Shown here in pieces: positions 4,675-21,315 of a stretch of DNA of 24,003 nucleotides. The stretch comes from a virus. Its lineage: Duplodnaviria; Heunggongvirae; Uroviricota; Caudoviricetes. Numbering within the stretch: the stretch's first letter is position 1; each line of letters starts with the position of its first letter. The position numbers and the translations under genes were made by a program. Below the pieces are notes generated by a model that had not been told where the DNA came from, ran no database searches, and was given only the letters and a program-made list of their open reading frames with translations. Location: IMG/VR virus record IMGVR_UViG_2681813233_000003. One strand, 5' to 3'.

Positions 4675-5037
4675 TCATTCATCTCCCAGTTCAGTGATGG
4701 TCAGTTCCAGCCTCCCACCTTTGGTAACAGGCATCTTCACAACGCGGTAATCAACGACCTGAGCATCATCCAGCCAGAAACCTGCTTTGGTGAGTGCGTC
4801 AAAAGCGGCCTTTTGCAGATTATCCAGGTCACGGCGACGGCGATCCGGCATGTGGCACTCAATGCGGATTTTCACAGGCATAGCCAGGCCGATATCCAGC
4901 ATTGCGTTTTTAATGATTCGGGCGACGTTATCGCGGTATGCCTGCCCCTCTGCGCTGATGTGCGTGCGCCCGCGATTATGGCGGTAATAGCGATTATTGC
5001 TCGGAGGCCAGGGTAATGTGATGCTGTAGGTATTCAC
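4675..5037 (-). CDS. rusA: Holliday-junction resolvase RusA (GTG start)
   Basis: 120 aa; characteristic RusA sequence recalled from DLP12/phage 82; nin-region position. Confidence 0.9.
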
Positions 5038-5039
5038 GC

Positions 5040-5250
5040 CTTAATAACCCCCCTCTTTCAGCCAGATAACCTGTGTTCTCGCCATACCTTCCAGCGCGCA
5101 TTCTTTTGCATATGCAGCATCGACTTGCTTGGCATGCCCTTTACCGGCAATCTTCTGTATGCGCTAAACCTAGATAGAATCCACTCTGTGCACATTGAAG
5201 CCCGCTCTATGCTTCCTTTCAGGTATTGAAGGGATTGAGATGGGCTAAGC
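5040..5250 (-). pseudogene. Degraded ybcO-like (DUF1364) remnant, fragments in two frames
   Basis: One frame translates ...HAKQVDAAYAKECALEGMARTQVIWLKEGGY*, recalled as matching the YbcO C-terminus; in-frame TAG upstream; no intact start. Confidence 0.3.
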
Positions 5251-5592
5251 ATTATTGGCCTCCTGCATCAGGAGAAAGACAATCATGGCGGCGCGGAGAG
5301 GTCTGGTATCAAATATTGGGCTTACGCCTTTTGCATCCACACACCATTCAGTTAACTGGTCTAAGATAGAAATCCTGTATTTCTCAATAATCGGCCATGA
5401 AGCGCTCGGATCATTGCAGTAGTCAGGCAAATGATTTAATGGCTCAAAAGTTGTATCAGCATTTCCGTAATACCATTTGTTGGTGTTATTCCCTGATGTT
5501 TCCGGTTTACTTGCCCAAAGGCCTTTAAAAATTATGTCTCCTACCATTCTGTTAATTTCAAAATCACTTAACTGTGAATAATCCATTGTCAT
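5245..5592 (-). CDS. Hypothetical nin-region protein (115 aa from MTMDYSQL)
   Basis: ORF 5245..5628; RBS gagga precedes ATG at 5592, which overlaps the ninE-like stop (ATGA). Confidence 0.55.
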
Positions 5593-5765
5593 TTCCTCGC
5601 ACGATATCTTAGCCACCGGATATCCCACAGGTGAGCTGTGTAATTGAAGGTTTTTACGTCAGATTCTTTTGGGATTGGCTTGCGTTTATTTCTGGAGCGT
5701 TTCGTTGGAAGGTATTTGCAGTTTTCGCAGATGATGTCGGTGAAACTTCGTCGCTGTCGCCTCAT
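5589..5765 (-). CDS. ninE: NinE-like small protein (58 aa)
   Basis: Manual translation [58 protein letters not shown]; start overlaps Dam stop, stop overlaps next start. Confidence 0.6.
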
Positions 5766-6289
5766 GCCGCCCTCCTGACGCCCTGCCCGATCGCCATCAA
5801 TGCCGCTTTGGATACGGTAGTAAACATCCGTCGAGGACTAATGAACGGTCGCCAAATCAGCAGCATGGAGCCTTTGCTGTTTCCCTTCTTCTCCAACCCT
5901 GTCGATGGTTCGATAAAATTAATCCGTCCATCAGTGATAATGCGAACTTCGTCGACACTCTCCAGAGCCTTGCTGAACCATCCGACTGACATATCCTCTG
6001 GCACAAGCATAACTACCGTCTGTCGCTGTTGTATGCACTGCTCAGCGGCTTTTTCCACCCACGGCCTGATATTGCTGTACGGTGGGTTATTCCAGATTGC
6101 ACCGTGGCTTACCCACTCAGAATTGAGCGCGTCGTCGGCCTCAGTTAGCCAGTGAGCACACAGAGCATTTTTGTCGCTCGCTGCCGAATCCAGCCAGAAT
6201 CCAAACTCAATATCCAGTGCATCAAAAAGCCAAAGCGGCGTTTGCCAGCAGTCCTTGTCGTGTGCTGGCGTATTTGATTTGATAGTCAT
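5762..6289 (-). CDS. Phage DNA N6-adenine methyltransferase (orphan Dam-like) in place of lambda ninC
   Basis: NPPY catalytic motif (IWNNPPYS); ~175 aa from MTIKSNTP; ATG overlaps ninB stop; start could lie further upstream in the same ORF. Confidence 0.75.
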
Positions 6290-6726
6290 GCAGCCCGATC
6301 TCCCCATCTCGCTTTCCACTCCAGAGCCAGTCTCGCTTCGTCTGACCACTTAACGCCACGCTCTGTACCGAATGCCTGTATAAGCTCTAATAGCTCCGCA
6401 AATTCGCCTACACGCATCCTGCTGGTTGACTGGCCTATTACCACAAAGCCATTCCCGGCAAGGTTAGGAACAACATCCTGCTGCTTTAATGCTGCGGTAA
6501 ACACACACTTCCAGCTTTCTGCATCCAGCCAGCGACCATGCCATTCAACCTGACGAGAGACGTCACCTAAGCAGGCCCATAGCTTCCTGTTTTGGTCTAA
6601 GCTGCGGTTGCGTTCCTGAATGGTTACTACGATTGGTTTGGTTGGGTCTGGAAGGATTTGCTGTACTGCGTGAATAGCGTTTTGCTGATGTGCTGGAGAT
6701 CGAATTTCAAAGGTTAGTTTTTTCAT
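6286..6726 (-). CDS. ninB: NinB (Orf recombination mediator), lambda-type
   Basis: 146 aa from MKKLTFEIRSPAHQQ; recalled lambda NinB sequence. Confidence 0.9.
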   Translation of the reverse strand: MKKLTFEIRSPAHQQNAIHAVQQILPDPTKPIVVTIQERNRSLDQNRKLWACLGDVSRQVEWHGRWLDAESWKCVFTAALKQQDVVPNLAGNGFVVIGQSTSRMRVGEFAELLELIQAFGTERGVKWSDEARLALEWKARWGDRAA

Positions 6727-6799
6727 GACTTCCCTCTCCCCCAAATAAAAAGGCCTGCGATTACCAGCAGGCCTGTTATTAGCTCAGTAATGTAGATGG

Positions 6800-7090
6800 T
6801 CATCTTTTAACTCCATATACCGCCAATACCCGTTTCATCGCGGCACTCTGGCGACACTCCTTAAAAATCAGGTTCGTGCTCATCTTTCCTTCCCGTTCTT
6901 CCCTGGTAGCAAACCGGTAATACACCGTTCGCCAGACCTTACCTTCGATAACCAGAAGACCTGCCCGTGCCATTTTAGCCGCGGCCTGATTTATGCTGGT
7001 TACTGTTGCGCCTGTTAGCGCGGCAACGTCCGGCGCACAGAAGCTATTATGCGTCCCCAGGTAATGAATAATTGCCTCTTTGCCCGTCAT
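6800..7090 (-). CDS. ren: Ren (Rex-exclusion resistance) protein, lambda-type
   Basis: 96 aa; position immediately downstream of P; start overlaps P stop. Confidence 0.8.
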   Translation of the reverse strand: MTGKEAIIHYLGTHNSFCAPDVAALTGATVTSINQAAAKMARAGLLVIEGKVWRTVYYRFATREEREGKMSTNLIFKECRQSAAMKRVLAVYGVKR

Positions 7091-7788
7091 ACACTTGCTC
7101 CTTTCAGTCCGAACTTAGCTTTGATTTCTGCGATCTTCGCCAGAGCCTGTGCACGATTTAGAGGTCTACCGCCCATGACAGGAAGTTGTTTTACTGGTTC
7201 AGGGATCGCCTCACCACGGTTAATTCTCGCAGTCATATGGACAAGCTCATCTGCGGCCTTACGGCGTAATTCCGCATCAGTAAGCGCATTGGCCCGCATG
7301 TTCTGATACAGGTTGGTAACCAGCCAGTAGTGCGCGTTTGATTTCCACGGATAAGACTCCGCATCCGGATACAGGCCTCGCTTCCGGCAATACTCGTAAA
7401 CCATATCAACCAGCTCGCTGACGTTTGGCAGTCCGGCGATAACGGATGCTTCTTCCCGGCACCATGCAACAAACTGCCCGGGTGATGGCAGAAATGGTCG
7501 ATTCTGCCGACGGGCTACGCGCATTCCTGCGTTAACCTGTTCCATTGTGGTGATCCCGTTTTCCCGGAAAGCCAGCACCCACTGGCGGCGGATTTCGTTC
7601 AGTTCGTTCTGGTCACGGTTAGCCAGACTCGCCGGGAAAGTTGCCAGTAACTGGCTGAACACACCGTTGATGATCTGCGCTACCTGCTGTACCTGCGGCT
7701 TTTCGTCGTACTGTTCCGGCATGTTGTTGGCGATCCGACGCATCTGCTCACGGTCAAAGTTAACCATCTGTGCGGCGATGTTTTTCAT
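7087..7788 (-). CDS. P: Replication protein P (DnaB helicase loader), lambda-type
   Basis: 233 aa; recalled lambda P sequence; overlaps O stop. Confidence 0.95.
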   Translation of the reverse strand: MKNIAAQMVNFDREQMRRIANNMPEQYDEKPQVQQVAQIINGVFSQLLATFPASLANRDQNELNEIRRQWVLAFRENGITTMEQVNAGMRVARRQNRPFLPSPGQFVAWCREEASVIAGLPNVSELVDMVYEYCRKRGLYPDAESYPWKSNAHYWLVTNLYQNMRANALTDAELRRKAADELVHMTARINRGEAIPEPVKQLPVMGGRPLNRAQALAKIAEIKAKFGLKGASV

Positions 7789-8684
7789 AGATCCACCCCG
7801 TAAATCCAGTCTGTGTTTGTCAGGTCGAGTTTTGGTTTGCTGGCTGTCACGACTGCCTGTTGCTTGTTACGGTTGATTTCGAGCTGGGTCCACTTGTCGC
7901 GGAGTTTGGCCGGACTCAGCACGTTACCGGACCAGAAGTTGTCCTGGCAGGCCCAGCGGAAAAGCACACACATATCGCGGTGGTTACGTCCGTCACGTTC
8001 ACGCATCAGGCGGATATCGTTAGCCCACCCAGCAAAATTCGGTTTTCTGGCTGATGGTGCGATAGTCTTCACCATGTCAAACATCCACTCTGCGGCGGTC
8101 AGGTCTTCTGCTGTCCCCCACTTGCTGCCGCTCTGAATTGCAGCATCCGGTTTAACCACAGAAAGATCGTTTTCTGGCTGGTCAGAGGATTCGCCAGAAT
8201 TCTCGGACGAATAATCTTTTCTTTTTTCTTTTGTAATAGTGTCTTTTGTGTCCCCCTGTTTTGAGGGATAGCAATCCCCCAATTTGAGGGATGTTTTATC
8301 CCTCGTTTTAGGGGATTTTCCCTCGTTTTGAGGGATACACCATTCTGAGATGTTTTTATTTGGTCCAAACATGCCGCCTTGCTGCTTGATAATATTCATT
8401 CTGACGAGTTCTAACTTGGCTTCATTGCACCGTTTGACAGGTAACTTTGTAATCTCGCTAAGTTGAGAATCGGTGATTCTGTCCATTGGTTTATTCCACC
8501 CATAGGTTTTACGCAGAATGGCAAGCAGCACTTTAAACTGTCGCTTGGTCAGATCTGCGCCTGAATAAGCCTCAAGCAGCATATTTGATAGTCTGGCGTA
8601 ACCATCATCGAGATCTGCCACATTACGCTCCTGTTTGGCAAAGTTACCTCTGCAGAAGTTGAGTATTTTTGCTGTATTTGTCAT
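7785..8684 (-). CDS. O: Replication initiator O, lambda-type
   Basis: 299 aa; contains the ori-lambda iterons within its coding sequence. Confidence 0.95.
   Translation of the reverse strand: MTNTAKILNFCRGNFAKQERNVADLDDGYARLSNMLLEAYSGADLTKRQFKVLLAILRKTYGWNKPMDRITDSQLSEITKLPVKRCNEAKLELVRMNIIKQQGGMFGPNKNISEWCIPQNEGKSPKTRDKTSLKLGDCYPSKQGDTKDTITKEKRKDYSSENSGESSDQPENDLSVVKPDAAIQSGSKWGTAEDLTAAEWMFDMVKTIAPSARKPNFAGWANDIRLMRERDGRNHRDMCVLFRWACQDNFWSGNVLSPAKLRDKWTQLEINRNKQQAVVTASKPKLDLTNTDWIYGVDL
8251..8336. repeat. ori-lambda iterons (four ~19-bp repeats) with adjacent AT-rich region 8205-8245
   Basis: Repeated tccctcaaaacgagggaaa-type units visible as reverse complement; flanked by an A/T tract. 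Confidence 0.85.
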
Positions 8685-8716
8685 AATGACTCCTGTGGAT
8701 TGATCCAGTAATGACC

Positions 8717-9013
8717 TCAGAATTCCATCTGGATTTGTTCAGAACGCTCGGTTGCCGCCGGGCGTTTTTTATTGGTGAATCCATCAAGCGCATACTTAAA
8801 AGCCCTGCTAATCGGACTTATGTCTGATGCCATTCCGAAAGCACACAAGACCGAAGCAATAAATCTCCAGTCCGTTCTGCTTATCTTCGATTCATGACAG
8901 CCAATCATCTTTGCCAGACCGCGCTGGGTAATAGCTGACAGATTGATAAGTAAATCTGTTTCTGCGCGATCAACGTCACGCTGTGATAGTTTGCTGTAAC
9001 TTGTTCTTTCCAT
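8717..9013 (-). CDS. cII: CII-like transcriptional activator, chimeric (non-lambda N-terminus, lambda-identical C-terminal ~20 aa)
   Basis: C-terminus ...TNKKRPAATERSEQIQMEF matches lambda CII; N-terminal HTH region differs. Confidence 0.8.
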   Translation of the reverse strand: MERTSYSKLSQRDVDRAETDLLINLSAITQRGLAKMIGCHESKISRTDWRFIASVLCAFGMASDISPISRAFKYALDGFTNKKRPAATERSEQIQMEF

Positions 9014-9098
9014 TTCTTAAGATTTCCAATAGTGAATAGTTAGTTGAAAGGTATGCGTGGAAACGCATATGGCCTTAGTTGGTCAGATATCTTGGAAC

Positions 9099-9144
9099 TC
9101 GCTTTTCAGCGACGTAGGACGAATGTCCGTTGTTACAAAGAGCG
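9099..9144 (-). promoter_or_regulatory. nutR-like site (boxA cgctctttgtaacaa, boxB hairpin tcgc-tgaaaa-gcga) between cro and cII
   Basis: On minus strand, boxA-like consensus followed ~15 nt later by a GAAAA-loop hairpin; same architecture as the nutL candidate. Confidence 0.5.
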
Positions 9145-9154
9145 GATCCGCTTA

Positions 9155-9370
9155 TTAAGCGGCTTTGTGTTCCGGCGGGAACACGTCATCAAGACTGACT
9201 TTTGCGCCTAACTTGTTTAGGCATGCAACAAGAGCACGGCATGTTTTAAGGTCTGGGAAGCGACGACCAGATTCCCAATGTCCGATAGCTCCCTGTGTGC
9301 ATCCAACTGCCTTAGCAAGTGTTGTTTGAGAGATATTCAGTGACTCTCGATATTTTCGTAGGTTGCTCAT
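9155..9370 (-). CDS. cro: Cro-like HTH repressor (non-lambda immunity specificity)
   Basis: 71 aa; HTH motif QTTLAKAVGCTQGAIGHWESG; divergent from cI; strong GGAGG RBS. Confidence 0.75.
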   Translation of the reverse strand: MSNLRKYRESLNISQTTLAKAVGCTQGAIGHWESGRRFPDLKTCRALVACLNKLGAKVSLDDVFPPEHKAA

Positions 9371-9479
9371 ATGCCCTCCATAGTAAACACGAATAAAAAT
9401 ACAATATGTACTTTACGAATACAAGTAAAAATACACATTGTGCATGGATGGTTCCAGTACAAAGCGTAATAATAAGGAC
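9371..9479. promoter_or_regulatory. Divergent pR/pRM promoter-operator region (OR) between cro and cI
   Basis: AT-rich 109-bp gap with repeated partially palindromic motifs (tacaatatgta, cacattgtg, ttacaagtaa). Confidence 0.45.
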
Positions 9480-10139
9480 ATGAAAATGAAATGGTATGAA
9501 CTGGCTAGATCCAGAATGAAAGAGCTCGGCATAACTCAAGAGAAGTTAGCCGAAGAGCTAGGTATGACGCAGGGTGGGATTGGACACTGGTTGCGCGGAT
9601 CTCGTCATCCATCTCTTAGTGATATTGGTGTGGTGTTTAAATACCTTGGTATTGATAACATATCATTCAACCACGACGGGACATTTTCACCTGTTGGCGA
9701 ATACTCATCGGCCCCAGTTAAAAAACAATATGAGTACCCTGTTTTTTCTCATGTTCAGGCTGGGATGTTCTCTCCAGAACTCAGAACCTTTACCAAAGGC
9801 GATGCGGAGAGATTGGTAAGCACAACCAAAAAAGCCAGTGACTCTGCATTCTGGCTTGAGGTTGAAGGTAACTCAATGACCGCACCAACAGGTTCCAAAC
9901 CCAGCTTTCCTGACGGGATGTTAATTCTGGTTGACCCTGAGCAAGCTGTTGAGCCCGGCGATTTCTGCATAGCCAGACTTGGTGGTGATGAATTTACCTT
10001 CAAGAAACTGATCAGGGATAGCGGTCAGGTGTTTCTACAGCCACTAAACCCACAATACCCAATGATCCCATGCAATGAGAGTTGTTCCGTTGTGGGGAAA
10101 GTTATCGCCAGCCAATGGCCTGAAGAGACGTTTGGGTGA
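9480..10139 (+). CDS. cI: CI repressor, chimeric: heterologous N-terminal DNA-binding domain fused to lambda-identical C-terminal LexA-like autocleavage/dimerisation domain
   Basis: From ~[14 protein letters not shown] to ...SQWPEETFG matches lambda CI; N-terminal ~95 aa differ; start at MKMKWYE preceded by aagga. Confidence 0.85.
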
Positions 10140-10178
10140 TGAAACCACTTTTATCTACAATTTACAGGGCGGTAAACA

Positions 10179-10736
10179 TTGGCAAAAATAGATGATTATC
10201 AGCCAAGCCAAGTAGAAGTTGATAAAGTACTTTATTGTAAAAAAATAGTTAACTTTTCTGGCGTTAAATGGAAACAGAAACCAAGTCGCTCTGATATGTG
10301 GCTACAAGCTCATATCATCCCCTTGGATGAGGATTGTATACCTATACAAGGGCTAAAGTTTGAACTGAAATGGAAACCAGATCAGGATTCAGAACCTGAT
10401 GACCCGATTTCTTACCCTAAAATAAATATTATTGCTTTCTATCATAACAAGAGGGTTTTCGCGGTAGATACCTATCACTTTGACAAACACACGAATAGTT
10501 ACAAGGTCGATCATCCGAAGTACCAAGATATCATTTACGGTGCTCACTACCATGTATACTATGAAGAAGCTGGATACTATAGTGATAGAATAGCGTTTCC
10601 AATCGAAGATGACATAAACCCAGATGACCTGGTAGGGTATTGGAATTACTTCTGTAAACATCTGAACATAACTTACTCTGGGAGAATACCTTTACCGCTT
10701 GAAGATGAGTCGGGGCAAATGGGGTTTGGAATATGA
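10179..10736 (+). CDS. Unknown protein A (185 aa, aromatic/acidic-rich, no TM) at the rexA position; candidate exclusion/defence component
   Basis: ORF 40 bp downstream of cI stop; probable TTG start (first in-frame ATG only at codon 40); many rare codons (ATA/AGA/AGG/CTA); stop overlaps gene B start. Confidence 0.6.
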   Translation: MAKIDDYQPSQVEVDKVLYCKKIVNFSGVKWKQKPSRSDMWLQAHIIPLDEDCIPIQGLKFELKWKPDQDSEPDDPISYPKINIIAFYHNKRVFAVDTYHFDKHTNSYKVDHPKYQDIIYGAHYHVYYEEAGYYSDRIAFPIEDDINPDDLVGYWNYFCKHLNITYSGRIPLPLEDESGQMGFGI

Positions 10737-11485
10737 TGTGCTCAACAGTGATCTCACAACTAGGTTTCGAATGCCATCCAATAGGCAAGACCTTGAGAAT
10801 TATCAGTCCATTCACTTACTGTGATGATGGAGAGCATGTCGGTGCCTTTATCCGTGAAGTCAATGGTAGGTATTTAGTTAGTGACAGATGCGATGCCTTA
10901 ATGAATATGGAGGCAAGAGGGATCTCGCTTACCAAAAAACGACTTGATGAGATACGACAATTACTGCTTAAAGAAGGCGCAGAACTCAATGCTCGAGGAG
11001 AAATCATTGCTTGGGCAACAGAAAAGGATGTCGGTGCGATTACATCGAACATAATTAGAGCTGGTATACTCGCATCAACTTTGTCGTTAGACTGGTATCA
11101 GCCAGTTCAAGCTGAAAAGTTTGAAAGTATGGTTATTGATTATCTATATCACACAGAGCTTAGAGACGCACTTTCTCTTCGTGAAAACGTATATGGCTTG
11201 AGTGGACATCAAATTACCGTCCCTGTAACAATAAAAACCGACATACCTAAATACGTTTTTACATCAAGCGTGAAACACGGAGGAAGCTGGAATAGTGCTT
11301 ACTCATTGCTTGGGAAACTAATTGATCTTAAAGCTTCAAGTGAGGAGTATAACAACAGATTTGTTGTTATAGACAGCGAAGCAATTGGTGATCAAATGCA
11401 ACAACTCTCCTTACTCTTCCATGAATCAAGCCAAGTTCTACCATTCTCCAAAAGAGAGACTTGGATTAAGAGACTTGCAGCATAA
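10733..11485 (+). CDS. Unknown protein B (250 aa, soluble) at the rexB position; candidate exclusion/defence component
   Basis: ATGATG start overlapping gene A stop (translational coupling); AT-rich with rare codons; followed directly by an intrinsic terminator. Confidence 0.65.
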   Translation: MMCSTVISQLGFECHPIGKTLRIISPFTYCDDGEHVGAFIREVNGRYLVSDRCDALMNMEARGISLTKKRLDEIRQLLLKEGAELNARGEIIAWATEKDVGAITSNIIRAGILASTLSLDWYQPVQAEKFESMVIDYLYHTELRDALSLRENVYGLSGHQITVPVTIKTDIPKYVFTSSVKHGGSWNSAYSLLGKLIDLKASSEEYNNRFVVIDSEAIGDQMQQLSLLFHESSQVLPFSKRETWIKRLAA

Positions 11486-11487
11486 TA

Positions 11488-11517
11488 CAACCCGGCCTCA
11501 GCGCCGGGTTTTCTTTG
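11488..11517 (+). terminator. Intrinsic terminator ending the cI-A-B transcription unit (timm analogue)
   Basis: cccggc-ctcagc-gccggg hairpin followed by TTTTCTTT. Confidence 0.6.
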
Positions 11518-11684
11518 CCTCACGTTCGCCCACCTAAAAACACATAACCAATTATATTTATTGAAAAATAAATAGATGCAACCCACTAAACCACGCAATT
11601 CTGATCTCTCCTTACATCGCCGAGACAATACATCCACGCTAAAAAACAACACTATTAAATACAAAGCGTTATAAAAAACCACGC

Positions 11685-11760
11685 CAACTTACAACAAATT
11701 GTATTGATCTTGTAAAGTACATATCGTACTATTTAACCGTCAGCAGGACGCTGGAAGCCA
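11685..11760 (+). promoter_or_regulatory. Putative pL/OL promoter-operator region
   Basis: AT-rich; palindromic motifs acaaattgt and gtacatatcgtac resembling the OR motifs; directly upstream of nutL and N. Confidence 0.35.
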
Positions 11761-11777
11761 AATGGAACAGACTGGCA

Positions 11778-11823
11778 GGCTCTTTAAACAACGTCGACTC
11801 TCGACTACGTGGCTGAAAAGCCA
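11778..11823 (+). promoter_or_regulatory. nutL-like site (boxA gctctttaaacaa, boxB tggc-tgaaaa-gcca)
   Basis: boxA consensus-like element followed by a GAAAA-loop hairpin, ~100 nt upstream of N start. Confidence 0.5.
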
Positions 11824-11921
11824 GATCACCCAACCACATAAGCTGTGGGATGCAATGCCGAAGCAACCGTCTCAGGAGGAGCTTCGAGATTGCATCGCCA
11901 AAGTTTATTCGGGAGGAATCC

Positions 11922-12194
11922 ATGTCCAGAAAAACAGAATTTAAAGGCACCGCAGCTTCTCGCCGTAGAGCTCGTCGCGCAAATCTGCAAAGTCAGGAGG
12001 CGATCAGCTCCGACAAGCTACACAGGCCAACCCCTTCACGAGTGGTCTTGCAATGCAAGCGCAAACCAGCAATGAGAGCAGAAGTAATAACACTGACAAC
12101 GTTGACCAGAAAATATGAAGGTTCAACTTGTCTTCCGAACGTAGCTCTTTACGCGGCAGGCTACCGGAAATCCAAACAACTGACAGCAAGATGA
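11922..12194 (+). CDS. N: N-type transcription antiterminator, P22 gp24-like (Arg-rich motif near N-terminus)
   Basis: 90 aa from MSRKTEFKGTAASRRRARRANL with gggagg RBS; C-terminus ...VALYAAGYRKSKQLTAR recalled as P22 gene 24-like; not lambda N. Confidence 0.7.
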   Translation: MSRKTEFKGTAASRRRARRANLQSQEAISSDKLHRPTPSRVVLQCKRKPAMRAEVITLTTLTRKYEGSTCLPNVALYAAGYRKSKQLTAR

Positions 12195-12252
12195 CTTGTG
12201 TTGGTCGCCAGAAAATGAAATTAGGCAGCAAACCACTTATTTGAGGTGAGAT

Positions 12253-12339
12253 ATGGAAGAAGAATTTGAAGAGTTCGAAGAGCATCCTCAGGATGTGATG
12301 GAACAATACCAGGACTATCCGTATGACTACGACTATTGA
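12253..12339 (+). CDS. orf28-like acidic micro-protein (28 aa), overlaps ral start by 17 nt
   Basis: Manual translation MEEEFEEFEEHPQDVMEQYQDYPYDYDY; gaggtg RBS; size and 17-nt overlap match the recalled lambda orf28/ral arrangement. Confidence 0.45.
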   Translation: MEEEFEEFEEHPQDVMEQYQDYPYDYDY

Positions 12340-12420
12340 TAAGAATCAATGGTGTGGACAATACGAACGACGACAATGATTGCCAGAGAACTTGGTAAAC
12401 AGAACTACAAGGCTGCCTGA
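12323..12420 (+). pseudogene. ral: ral (restriction alleviation) pseudogene: ~103-bp internal deletion with frameshift
   Basis: N-terminal MTTTIDKNQWCGQ then premature stop after 18 codons; C-terminal IRTTTMIARELGKQNYKAA lies in a different frame; lambda Ral recalled as 66 aa. Confidence 0.5.
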
Positions 12421-12438
12421 TGGTGGCCTTTATTTTTG
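12408..12438 (+). terminator. Intrinsic terminator after ral (G·U-containing stem aaggctgcc/ggtggcctt then TATTTTTG)
   Basis: Hairpin plus T tract; T-tract segment ggcctttatttttg is repeated at 12946. Confidence 0.45.
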
Positions 12439-12478
12439 TCCGTAAATAATTTCATGCTTATTACAATCAAGGTGATAT

Positions 12479-12928
12479 ATGGAAGAACAAGCAAACAAGA
12501 TTCTCGTAGAACTACTGCAAAAAGCCAGTAATGGAATAGACGCGGCTGTTTCATTTAGCCAGGCACAGATTCCTGATGTTGTTCATCAGTTGCTGCTATG
12601 GAATATGGTTGACAGTCTGATTAAAACATTAATGGCCATTCTAACAATCCCACTGGTTTTCTGGTTTATGAAGAAGCAGTGCCAAAGAGTTGAGACAGGT
12701 AAAATCGGTGATGAAGGATATTCATGGGAGAAAGGAAATCCCAAATACAGGCCGACAATGGTTTGGGATAGCAAAGGTGATATTAATCTTCTTATCATGC
12801 CATTGGTTGGAGTTTTGACTCTGTGGGGGATTTTTATTATTGGTGTAGTAACCAATATGACTTGGTTAAAAATTTGGCTGGCCCCAAAGCTTTACCTTAT
12901 CGAATATGCAGCATCATTGGTTAAGTAA
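12479..12928 (+). CDS. Small membrane protein (149 aa, two predicted TM helices); moron between ral and ea10, possible superinfection-exclusion function
   Basis: Hydrophobic stretches LIKTLMAILTIPLVFWFM and INLLIMPLVGVLTLWGIFIIGVV; aaggtg RBS; own terminator; AT-rich; flanked by 14-bp direct repeat. Confidence 0.6.
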   Translation: MEEQANKILVELLQKASNGIDAAVSFSQAQIPDVVHQLLLWNMVDSLIKTLMAILTIPLVFWFMKKQCQRVETGKIGDEGYSWEKGNPKYRPTMVWDSKGDINLLIMPLVGVLTLWGIFIIGVVTNMTWLKIWLAPKLYLIEYAASLVK

Positions 12929-12932
12929 TTTC

Positions 12933-12958
12933 AGGCCGCATAGTCGGCCTTTATTTTT
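12933..12958 (+). terminator. Intrinsic terminator of the 149-aa moron
   Basis: aggccg-catagt-cggcct hairpin followed by TTTATTTTTGG. Confidence 0.55.
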
Positions 12959-13077
12959 GGCATAAACAACAGAATAAACACTGCACTGTGTATTCATTCC
13001 AACGAGTGAATACACGGAGCAATGTCGCTCGTAACTAAACAGGAGCCGACTTGTTCTGATTATTGGAAATCTTCTTT

Positions 13078-13104
13078 GCCCTCCGATGTGAGGGCGATTT
13101 TTTA
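13078..13104 (+). terminator. Intrinsic terminator-like hairpin upstream of ea10
   Basis: gccctc-cgatgt-gagggc followed by GATTTTTTAT; preceded by 9-bp-stem hairpin gtgtattca...tgaatacac at 12989-13016. Confidence 0.4.
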
Positions 13105-13123
13105 TCTATGAGGATATGAATAG

Positions 13124-13492
13124 ATGTCAAACATCAAAAAATACATCATTGATTACGACTGGAAAGCATCAATAGAAATTGAAATCGACCATGACGTAAT
13201 GACAGAGGAAAAACTTCACCAGATTAATAATTTCTGGTCAGACTCTGAATACCGACTCAATAAACACGGCTCTGTATTAAATGCTGTATTAATCATGCTG
13301 GCGCAACATGTTCTGCTTATAGCAATTTCAAGCGACTTAAATGCATATGGTGTTGTGTGTGAGTTCGACTGGAATGATGGAAATGGTCAGGAAGGATGGC
13401 CTCCAATGGATGGTAGCGAAGGAATAAGAATTACCGATATCGATACATCAGGAATATTTGATTCAGATGATATGACTATCAAAGCCGCCTGA
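13124..13492 (+). CDS. ea10: Ea10 (lambda early protein, Ssb-associated)
   Basis: 122 aa; position between ral and cIII; recalled lambda Ea10. Confidence 0.8.
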   Translation: MSNIKKYIIDYDWKASIEIEIDHDVMTEEKLHQINNFWSDSEYRLNKHGSVLNAVLIMLAQHVLLIAISSDLNAYGVVCEFDWNDGNGQEGWPPMDGSEGIRITDIDTSGIFDSDDMTIKAA

Positions 13493-13564
13493 GCGCTGCG
13501 TTACCGCATACCAATAACGCTTCACTCGAGGCGTTTTTCGTTATGTATAAATAAGGAGCACACC

Positions 13565-13729
13565 ATGCAATATGCCATTGCAGGGTGGCCTGTTGCTGGC
13601 TGCCCTTCCGAATCTTTACTTGAACGAATCACCCGTAAATTACGTGACGGATGGAAACGCCTTATCGACATACTTAATCAGCCAGGAGTCCCAAAAAATG
13701 GATCAAACACTTATGGCTATCCAGACTAA
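13565..13729 (+). CDS. cIII: CIII (FtsH inhibitor, stabilises CII)
   Basis: Manual translation [54 protein letters not shown] (54 aa) equals recalled lambda CIII. Confidence 0.9.
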   Translation: MQYAIAGWPVAGCPSESLLERITRKLRDGWKRLIDILNQPGVPKNGSNTYGYPD

Positions 13730-18383: not shown

Positions 18384-18409
18384 TTGCGTGTAATTGCGGA
18401 GACTTTGCG

Positions 18410-18628
18410 ATGTACTTGACACTTCAGGAGTGGAACGCACGCCAGCGACGCCCAAGAAGCCTTGAAACAGTTCGTCGATGGGTACGCGAGTGCAGGATAT
18501 TCCCTCCTCCGGTTAAGGATGGAAGAGAGTATCTGTTCCACGAATCAGCGGTAAAGGTTGACTTAAATCGACCAGTAACAGGTAGCCTTTTGAAGAGGAT
18601 CAGAAATGGGAAGAAGGCGAAGTCATGA
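18410..18628 (+). CDS. xis: Excisionase Xis, lambda-type
   Basis: 72 aa MYLTLQEWNARQRRPRSLETVRRWVRE...; overlaps int start. Confidence 0.95.
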   Translation: MYLTLQEWNARQRRPRSLETVRRWVRECRIFPPPVKDGREYLFHESAVKVDLNRPVTGSLLKRIRNGKKAKS

Positions 18629-19676
18629 GCGCCGGGATTTACCCCCTAACCTTTATATAAGAAACAATGGATATTACTGCTACAGGGACCCAAGGACGGG
18701 TAAAGAGTTTGGATTAGGCCGAGACAGGCGAATCGCAATCACTGAAGCTATACAGGCCAACATTGAGTTATTTTCAGGACACAAACACAAGCCTCTGACA
18801 GCGAGAATCAACGGTGATAATTCCGTTACGTTACATTCATGGCTTGATCGCTACGAAAAAATCCTGGCTAGCAGAGGAATCAAGCAGAAGACACTCATAA
18901 ATTACATGAGCAAAATTAAAGCAATAAGGAGGGGTCTGCCTGATGCTCCACTTGAAGACATCACCACAAAAGAAATTGCGGCAATGCTCAATGGATACAT
19001 AGACGAGGGCAAGGCGGCGTCAGCCAAGTTAATCAGATCAACACTGAGCGATGCATTCCGAGAGGCAATAGCTGAAGGCCATATAACAACAAACCCTGTC
19101 GCTGCCACTCGCGCAGCAAAATCAGAGGTAAGGAGATCAAGACTTACGGCTGACGAATACCTGAAAATTTATCAAGCAGCAGAATCATCACCATGTTGGC
19201 TCAGACTTGCAATGGAACTGGCTGTTGTTACCGGGCAACGAGTTGGTGATTTATGCGAAATGAAGTGGTCTGATATCGTAGATGGATATCTTTATGTCGA
19301 GCAAAGCAAAACAGGCGTAAAAATTGCCATCCCAACAGCATTGCATGTTGATGCTCTCGGAATATCAATGAAGGAAACACTTGATAAATGCAAAGAGATT
19401 CTTGGCGGAGAAACCATAATTGCATCTACTCGTCGCGAACCGCTTTCATCCGGCACAGTATCAAGGTATTTTATGCGCGCACGAAAAGCATCAGGTCTTT
19501 CCTTCGAAGGGGATCCGCCTACCTTTCACGAGTTGCGCAGTTTGTCTGCAAGACTCTATGAGAAGCAGATAAGCGATAAGTTTGCTCAACATCTTCTCGG
19601 GCATAAGTCGGACACCATGGCATCACAGTATCGTGATGACAGAGGCAGGGAGTGGGACAAAATTGAAATCAAATAA
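18606..19676 (+). CDS. int: Integrase Int (tyrosine recombinase), lambda-type
   Basis: 356 aa; near-identical to recalled lambda Int including the catalytic C-terminal region. Confidence 0.97.
   Translation: MGRRRSHERRDLPPNLYIRNNGYYCYRDPRTGKEFGLGRDRRIAITEAIQANIELFSGHKHKPLTARINGDNSVTLHSWLDRYEKILASRGIKQKTLINYMSKIKAIRRGLPDAPLEDITTKEIAAMLNGYIDEGKAASAKLIRSTLSDAFREAIAEGHITTNPVAATRAAKSEVRRSRLTADEYLKIYQAAESSPCWLRLAMELAVVTGQRVGDLCEMKWSDIVDGYLYVEQSKTGVKIAIPTALHVDALGISMKETLDKCKEILGGETIIASTRREPLSSGTVSRYFMRARKASGLSFEGDPPTFHELRSLSARLYEKQISDKFAQHLLGHKSDTMASQYRDDRGREWDKIEIK

Positions 19677-21110: not shown

Positions 21111-21315
<205 letters not shown>

Follow-up and report, generated by a model that had tools for sequence, protein, structure and literature searches.

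A lambdoid immunity and early-regulation region of the VT2-Sakai type, and its mosaic ancestry, in a lambda-like prophage

A repressor gene and an activator gene that each join two parts of different ancestry raise the question of whether the immunity region that contains them is a new hybrid, with a specificity of its own, or an assortment of alleles that is already known. The question is posed here by positions 8717-12194 of a DNA stretch of 24,003 nucleotides from a member of the Caudoviricetes (IMG/VR record IMGVR_UViG_2681813233_000003; the whole stretch is called the window in the following), which a preliminary description, made from the sequence alone, had presented as a hybrid immunity module. 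The answer to which the present analysis leads, with a probability of about 0.9, is that the region controls lysis and lysogeny (i.e. immunity and early regulation) in a lambda-like prophage and is of the VT2-Sakai immunity type, known originally from the Shiga-toxin (Stx) phages VT2-Sakai, Stx1-converting phage and Stx2 phage II. As an immunity region the module contains nothing new, its type being old and widely distributed: since alleles of the VT2-Sakai type have been described before and are found in hundreds of Escherichia coli genomes, the region must be regarded as ordinary. All six sequence claims of the preliminary description are borne out. Gene identities, junctions and identity to known phages were established by searches and alignments, the junctions and segment identities by blastn and alignments against lambda, HK97, HK022, P22, AP005153 and PhiR57_1.

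The repressor gene cI (9480-10139, plus strand; longest open reading frame (ORF) from 9438) encodes a helix-turn-helix (HTH) domain and a peptidase domain (Pfam HTH_3 and Peptidase_S24, E 1e-28). Its start is most likely at 9480 rather than at the database-annotated ATG at 9444, because the latter would put OR3 inside the gene. From YEYPVFSH to its end, CI matches the C-terminal domain of lambda CI (PDB 3bdn and 8gmu, E 1e-89 to 1e-96), with 136 of 137 residues identical, and its N-terminal HTH domain gives only a weak match to lambda in the same PDB search (E about 2e-3). The two parts meet at about 9727 in the alignment, in the hinge and immediately ahead of the Ala-Gly cleavage site, so that the chimeric repressor of the preliminary description, with a non-lambda HTH domain and a lambda-type C-terminal domain, is borne out. 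Such a protein is itself not new, as a lambda-identical CI C-terminus on a different N-terminus has already been stated (PMC3430580), and a passage of PMC10742460 credits the chimeric CI to Fattah et al. (2000). At the DNA level, positions 9729-10140 correspond to lambda 37638-37227 at 93.4% (blastn); the 27 nucleotide differences amount to 26 synonymous and one non-synonymous codons, which indicates strong purifying selection, that is, selection on function, in the CI C-terminal domain. The features of self-cleavage are intact, namely the AG cleavage site (AGMF), the GNSM serine and the FKKL lysine, and the combination of HTH and S24 domains with the Ala-Gly site and the Ser/Lys pair places CI in the LexA/CI family of self-cleaving repressors. 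The N-terminal domain is, with Cro and the operators, a determinant of specificity. An identity of at least 99% to it is seen in 56 phage records, among them 1717, 2851, YYZ-2008 and the PA series; the domains of AP005153, 1717, 2851 and YYZ-2008 are 100% identical, and that of VT2-Sakai is 98.8% identical.

The cro gene (9155-9370, minus strand) encodes a 71-residue HTH protein of the XRE type (Pfam HTH_3, E 4e-12). Sequence comparison reveals no similarity to the lambda cro gene, and the earlier claim that Cro is unrelated to lambda Cro holds. The protein is 35% identical to the N-terminal domain of its own CI, and is a paralogue of that DNA-binding domain. The full-length CI, Cro and N proteins are all 100% identical to those of the Stx1-converting phage AP005153.

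The operators had also been described as different from those of lambda, and they are: six predicted 17-base-pair (bp) sites, roughly of the form AAnTACA-N5-GTAnTT, take the place of the lambda operators. In OR (9397-9471), with pR and pRM interleaved, OR1 lies at 9397-9413, OR2 at 9429-9445 and OR3 at 9455-9471; in OL, which together with pL spans 11657-11733, OL3 lies at 11657-11673, OL2 at 11690-11706 and OL1 at 11715-11731. The core TACANNNYGT has 10 matches in the 24 kb, seven of which fall inside the two OR and OL stretches of about 75 bp each. This shorter core is the informative one; a 13-mer consensus, ATACAANTTGTAT, allowed three mismatches, was not enriched (15 found versus 13 expected) and was dropped. 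Against the annotation of AP005153 and the OR1-3 and OL1-3 sites of VT2-SA used in an electrophoretic mobility shift assay (EMSA) study (PMC10742460), four operators match exactly and the other two are one base off; within OR, OR1 and OR2 are identical and OR3 has one mismatch (PMC10742460, Table S1). Pattern scans found no lambda-type operator or half-site in the OR and OL stretches and no 434-type ACAA-N6-TTGT operator in the window. A search for inverted repeats with a 6-nucleotide seed was blank in OR and OL, the arms being too short and imperfect for it. A candidate pL was read by eye as the hexamers TTGATC (-35, at 11705) and TACTAT (-10, at 11728), and the candidate promoters would overlap OR1 and OL1; pR, pL and pRM all went undetected in a sigma-70 promoter scan. 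Thus, the repressor DNA-binding domain, Cro and all six operators are those of the VT2-Sakai immunity group. The region is not of the imm lambda type, whose CI N-terminal domain, Cro fold and TATCACCGC-type operators it lacks, nor of the imm434 type, from which it differs in repressor, Cro and operators.

How far the module has spread bears on whether the hybrid could be a recent recombinant, unique to this genome and endowed with a new immunity specificity. From nin to N (4999-12194), the window is collinear with phage PhiR57_1 at 98.7%, and comparable matches to the region are given by ev017, ev207 and PhiR63_2; positions 8700-12260 are covered to at least 80% in 236 of 5426 complete E. coli genomes, among which are APEC O1, the type strain ATCC 11775 and Nissle 1917. 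A recent origin might be read from O and P, which are nearly identical to those of lambda (98.3% and 99.0%, respectively) and make the junction at the cII tail look recent, and from the lack of any phage record with a coverage of 80% or more over the entire 24-kb window. However, the complete module from cII to N is carried, at 99.5-100% identity, by numerous E. coli strains of unrelated background (isolates from wild boar and poultry, APEC O1, ATCC 11775, Nissle 1917) and is also found in isolated phages, and the CI N-terminal domain, Cro and the operators are identical to those of phages sequenced around 2000-2003. Furthermore, divergence from lambda in the CI C-terminal domain amounts to 6.6% at the DNA level, from which it follows that the cI junction is old. 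A recent and unique recombination event is thereby refuted for the immunity core and, as an account of the region, retains next to no probability. Collinearity of the entire region with a single known phage, i.e. PhiR57_1, disposes of its novelty, not of its mosaic ancestry. What stands of the proposed immunity-region exchange is, therefore, the mosaic architecture, with junctions inside cI and cII; what falls is that the exchange was a new one, the type being that of VT2-Sakai and widespread.

The prophage is oriented opposite to the lambda map and ends where int (18606-19676) adjoins ybhC, which is the lambda attachment locus; on one side the module is bordered by O, P and ren, and on its other side by orf28, ral, an additional ORF and ea10. 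Read against lambda in the order of the window, the region is a patchwork that starts with lambda-type ren, P, O, oop and cII tail (6370-8778, 98.9% to lambda), and continues with an HK022-type cII core and nutR (8779-9145; 87-90% to HK97/HK022 and 96% to the Stx1 phage). These are followed by cro, OR and the CI N-terminal domain (9146-9728), which are of the Sakai type only, and by the lambda-type CI C-terminal domain (9729-10140; 93.4% to lambda, 94.3% to HK97 by blastn and 98.3% to the Stx1 phage). Next, a foreign two-gene cassette (10141-11488), common to PhiR57_1, ev017 and Nissle 1917 and not present in the Stx1 phage AP005153, replaces rexAB, ahead of a lambda-like segment with a lambda-type terminator (11489-11610, plus strand; hairpin 11489-11510), 90% identical to lambda 35827-35709, just after rexB. 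Sakai-type OL, pL and nutL with an N of the HK97 family (11611-12194) then lead, without sieB, into lambda-type orf28, ral and beyond (12228 onward). Divergence from lambda is unequal, being about 1-2% in O and P versus 6.6% in the DNA of the CI C-terminal domain, which indicates that the exchanges took place at different times. The junctions lie at functional seams, in the CI hinge and just before the CII tail, and modules have thus been swapped without breaking the proteins.

The second of these seams is found in cII (8717-9013, minus strand), the product of which matches Pfam Phage_CII (PF05269) over its full length (E 4e-33) and aligns with PDB 1xwr. Its last 20 residues are identical to those of lambda CII, and the remainder is about 25% identical; the first approximately 78 residues are of the HK97/HK022 type, with the whole protein 82% and the core about 90% identical to HK97/HK022 cII. 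The change from HK022/Stx-type to lambda-type sequence is placed at 8778-8785 by the end of the blastn lambda segment (8778) and a five-way DNA alignment, in agreement with the different N-terminus and lambda C-terminus previously claimed for this gene. In lambda, the flexible C-terminal tail of CII is the signal for degradation by FtsH, and is overlapped by the oop antisense RNA; as the swapped part is precisely this tail, the cII junction falls at a functional seam. The lambda-type oop region (8696-8772, plus strand), with a terminator hairpin at 8741-8768 and a T-run, lies just inside the lambda-like segment, and the junction is found a few bases past its terminator. The coordinates of oop were carried over, through the 98.9% alignment, from lambda 38675-38599, which we take to be its position there, and the terminator-like site came from a scan. 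A pattern scan also returned a candidate CII-binding repeat, TTGC-N6-TTGT, at 8991-9004 (plus strand), antisense in the 5′ end of cII, which by its motif and by the position of pRE in lambda is probably the CII site of pRE. A CII fold together with a TTGC-N6-TTGC-like site in the 5′ end of its own gene is what characterizes phage CII activators, and the protein is classed with them on this basis. Farther away, a perfect repeat of this kind, TTGCGTGTAATTGC (TTGC-N6-TTGC), is present at 18384-18397, upstream of int, where it fits a pI-like promoter, and the HK022-type CII core would be expected to read it.

The same gene has been encountered under another name. Working with prophage 3 of E. coli Nissle 1917, Bury et al. 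(2018; PMC5987069) cloned EcN_1294 as a ‘phage repressor (pr)’ and reported that the clone lowered the plating of lambda and Stx phages more than 200-fold. The cloning primers of that study flank window positions 8692-9059, the quantitative PCR primers amplify 8758-8816, and cII is 99% identical in Nissle 1917; pr is a cII allele, not a repressor. Because the primers bracket exactly cII, the effect of pr is to be sought in over-expressed CII or in the antisense oop region, which changes the reading of the Nissle 1917 plating result.

This result also touches upon the specificity of the immunity. With respect to the operators and DNA-binding domains, homo-immunity with Stx phages of the Sakai type and hetero-immunity with lambda are expected. 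An alternative is that the module is lambda-immune or cross-immune, CI and lambda CI acting on each other's operators or forming mixed oligomers, so that the lysogen would exclude lambda. The C-terminal domain is indeed lambda's own, a few recognition contacts are shared, and Nissle 1917, a carrier of the module, resists lambda; as just discussed, though, the Nissle effect maps to a clone that is cII and not cI, and that strain has further barriers. In EMSA experiments lambda CI does bind all VT2-SA operators, albeit with apparent dissociation constants of 3.7-6.4 µM versus 0.2-0.35 µM for lambda OL1/OR1 (PMC10742460), which is no better than its affinity for the weakest lambda site. Given, in addition, that the DNA-binding domains are only distantly related and that OR and OL are devoid of lambda-type half-sites, cross-immunity is considered unlikely, and hetero-immunity with lambda is preferred.

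The N gene (11922-12194, plus strand; longest ORF from 11850) encodes a protein of 90 amino acids with the arginine-rich motif GTAASRRRARRAN (Pfam N_peptide, E 2e-32), with which a PDB sequence search returned no match. Its last 21 residues, CLPNVALYAAGYRKSKQLTAR, are identical to those of HK97 N and close to those of P22 gp24, LPGVALYAAGHRKSKQITAR; overall, N is about 41% identical both to HK97 N, relative to which it has an internal deletion, and to P22 gp24. The P22 gp24-like N proposed earlier is thus correct as to the relatedness of the C-terminus, but the protein is of the HK97/Stx-phage type, P22 gp24 being more distant. Of the nut sites, nutR (9099-9144, minus strand) consists of boxA CGCTCTTTG at 9144-9130 and a candidate boxB, UCGCUGAAAAGCGA, at 9112-9099, and nutL (11779-11823, plus strand) of boxA GCTCTTTAAACAA at 11779-11791 and a candidate boxB, UGGCUGAAAAGCCA, at 11810-11823, with a folding z-score of -2.05. 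The boxA-like sequences CGCTCTTTG and GCTCTTTAA are each followed by a hairpin with the common loop CUGAAAAG, and one stem change between the two hairpins is compensatory (UCGCU/AGCGA versus UGGCU/AGCCA). A second, non-conserved hairpin lies between boxA and the hairpin with the CUGAAAAG loop, and minimum free energy folding of the 54-nucleotide nut segments is ambiguous, boxA being paired with the candidate boxB; the hairpin with the CUGAAAAG loop is taken as the candidate boxB. The hallmarks of N-type antitermination are thus present, namely an arginine-rich N and, beyond pL as well as pR, a boxA-like element that precedes a short hairpin.

Downstream of N, the absence of sieB had been noticed on the basis of a gap of about 58 bp, and is confirmed: N stops at 12194 and the ATG of the orf28-like gene is at 12254, leaving 59 bp, with lambda homology resuming at 12228 (lambda 34382). 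Directly after the N stop, and out of frame, a 51-nucleotide relic of a lambda-type N 3′ end (12194-12244, plus strand), at the place that sieB takes up in lambda, would encode TCVGRQKMKLGSKPLI followed by a stop codon. The relic resembles the end of lambda/21-type N, matching the lambda N end at 30 of 51 nucleotides and 11 of 16 residues, and the same sequence forms the genuine N C-terminus in phage mEp213. It is also found directly 3′ of HK97 N and in 255 phage records, and a local, private deletion of sieB was rejected on these grounds. The sieB-less state appears instead to be a widespread alternative allele that was acquired through recombination, with the joint precisely at the stop codon of N; up to that codon, PhiR57_1 and Nissle 1917 share 98.7% identity with the window, and then carry sieB. 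As a separate observation, a faint trace of the final codons of the N end persists in lambda just upstream of orf28, which suggests that sieB was inserted between N and orf28.

By homology, the regulatory behaviour of the module would be that of a standard, bistable CI/Cro switch. In the lysogen, the CI HTH domain would bind the three OR and three OL operators and shut off pR and pL, with the lambda-type C-terminal domain providing dimerization, cooperative contacts and RecA-stimulated self-cleavage; with such a domain the prophage should be SOS-inducible. During lytic growth, Cro would take the same operators, and N would act at nutL and nutR to have terminators read through. CII, with its HK022-type DNA-binding core and lambda tail, would activate pRE and establish lysogeny.

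Several points weigh against this picture of a VT2-Sakai-type switch at work. The centre-to-centre spacing of the operators is 32 bp between O1 and O2 in OR versus 25 bp in OL, and 26 versus 33 bp between O2 and O3, so that OR and OL do not mirror each other, whereas in lambda all spacings are about 23-24 bp; given this asymmetry, pairwise cooperativity in the style of lambda is not to be assumed. The late region of the prophage, which bears on inducibility, falls outside the window, and related copies in Nissle 1917 and E. coli CEA106S are defective or interrupted by insertion sequences (IS). Finally, operator occupancy, promoter positions, the cI start (9444, 9480 or 9486) and the choice of boxB are what we infer rather than observe. 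Taken to the extreme, the region might be the inert remnant of a decaying prophage, whose regulators no longer function, as could be argued from the disruption of ral by an internal deletion, from the lack of inducibility of Nissle 1917 prophage 3, from the IS3 copies in cII, gam and Q of CEA106S and from the stop codon in the cI of VT2-Sakai (PMC3430580). Yet cII, cro, cI, N and the two cassette genes are full-length, each with a plausible ribosome-binding site, and no damage is seen in the operators, the nut sites, int/xis, bet, exo, O or P of the window. The 26:1 ratio of synonymous to non-synonymous codons in the CI C-terminal domain speaks for a repressor under selection, and a resident repressor would still be useful to the host in a defective prophage. 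An inert remnant is, thus, regarded as very unlikely, and a region with working regulators of the VT2-Sakai type remains the preferred reading.

The part of the region to which the preliminary description made no reference is the 1.3-kb cassette of two genes (10179-11485) that replaces rexAB, with lambda-like sequence on both sides. Its first gene, orf185 (10179-10736, plus strand), encodes a mostly beta protein of 185 amino acids, and overlaps by 4 nucleotides the second, orf250 (10733-11485, plus strand; 250 amino acids). No lambda similarity was found by blastn between 10141 and 11488, and neither Pfam nor PADLOC searches returned Rex homologues in the cassette: the slot is that of rexAB, the proteins are unrelated. 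Orf250 matches PADLOC PDC-M24B remotely over its full length (E 6e-10), and Orf185 matches PDC-M24A only in residues 104-163 (E 5e-4), by which the cassette would be a remote relative of the candidate system PDC-M24. The PDC systems are unvalidated PADLOC candidates (‘guilt by embedding’) from inside BREX, DISARM and type I restriction-modification loci. In Orf250, an N-terminal DUF1828 domain (Pfam), which is YbjN/secretion-chaperone-like, precedes a C-terminal domain with a predicted restriction-endonuclease-like fold; residues H159, K173, D198 and D214 of the protein are invariant. The AlphaFold models of the cassette proteins are confident (predicted local distance difference test, pLDDT, about 83); that of Orf185 gave no informative structural match, a PDB profile search with the Orf250 alignment gave noise only, and nothing relevant was found in the literature on DUF1828, DUF6978 or PDC-M24.

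Homologues of the two cassette proteins are found together in several genera of gamma-proteobacteria (Enterobacterales and Aeromonas), among them Salmonella, Yersinia, Pectobacterium, Photorhabdus and Aeromonas. In otherwise dissimilar prophages of Aeromonas, Pectobacterium, Thorsellia and Photorhabdus, the pair follows a cI-like repressor gene immediately and in the same orientation. A role of the cassette as lysogen-expressed defence is plausible. In its full form, the proposal is a tentative one, held with somewhat less than even confidence: orf185 and orf250 may constitute an uncharacterized anti-phage system, co-transcribed with cI from pRM in the lysogen, with Orf250 as a sensor-plus-nuclease effector, Orf185 as its partner or regulator, and a part to play like that of RexAB. 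The cassette is a reasonable defence-system candidate.

Beyond orf28, the ral pseudogene (12324-12421) has a normal start, MTTTIDKNQWCGQ, and then, relative to lambda, an internal deletion of about 70 bp that shifts the frame; ral is likewise marked ‘frameshifted’ by the Prokaryotic Genome Annotation Pipeline in E. coli CEA106S. Between ral and ea10, an additional ORF of 149 amino acids, orf149 (12479-12928), is absent from lambda and PhiR57_1. Its product, a member of phrog_3054 (function unknown), contains two hydrophobic segments that, read by eye, resemble membrane helices, and has no match in PADLOC; it may be a membrane-level exclusion protein. Terminator-like hairpins at 12409-12430 and at about 12935-12960 flank the gene in a layout typical of morons, and the full N-ral-orf149 arrangement is found in 48 complete E. 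coli genomes. The CEA106S genome (NZ_CP166722) matches 11700-13200 at 100% and carries a near-identical prophage with four copies of one IS3-family element, in Q, in cII, in gam and near xis, and illustrates how rapidly a prophage of this type can decay through the insertion of IS elements. Among RNA elements in the window, Rfam Lambda_thermo, the cIII translational thermometer, is recognized at 13552-13610 with 88.5 bits, a score from which the lambda-type control element of cIII is judged to be intact. Past the prophage end, in host DNA, Rfam naRNA4, a nucleoid-associated RNA of the repetitive extragenic palindromic (REP) type, is matched at 21163-21233 (60.7 bits versus a cut-off of 59.5).

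Set beside known systems, the region is a textbook example of lambdoid mosaicism, with an allele set that is already catalogued in Stx phages and common E. coli prophages. The Stx phages (VT2-Sakai, AP005153, Stx2 phage II, 1717, 2851 and YYZ-2008) share with the window, besides the immunity alleles, the nut sites and the sieB-less junction of N, relic and orf28, with a DNA identity of 96% over cII-cro-cI and 94% over OL-N. They differ in having an HK022-type cII tail and HK022/P22-type replication genes, where the window has lambda-type ones, and unrelated ORFs between cI and N. PhiR57_1 corresponds to the window in nin, P, O, the chimeric cII, cro, cI, orf185/orf250 and N, and PhiR63_2, ev017, ev207 and Nissle prophage 3 are similar; in PhiR57_1 and Nissle 1917, unlike in the window, sieB comes immediately after N and orf149 is missing from between ral and ea10. 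A literature search yielded no paper on the PhiR phages.

With lambda itself, the window has in common ren, P, O, oop, the last 20 CII residues, the CI C-terminal domain, the terminator after the rex slot, orf28/ral, ea10 through exo and the attachment site next to ybhC. It differs from lambda in the CI DNA-binding domain, the Cro fold, the operators, N and the nut sites, as well as in the replacement of rexAB, the absence of sieB, the broken ral and the extra gene for a predicted membrane protein. HK97 differs in its lambda-like cI and cro, in an N of 127 amino acids and in other cargo between cI and N. P22 immC has in gp24 a related C-terminus, but its C2 repressor is only 37% identical. Among the PDB matches at E<=0.01 there are no chains of the 434 repressor or of 434 Cro; as in 434 and P22, nevertheless, Cro is here paralogous to the HTH domain of the repressor. 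In principle, the window resembles P22 immC and the imm434/imm21 hybrids also in that an immunity cassette has been exchanged as such, with its junctions in conserved flanks.

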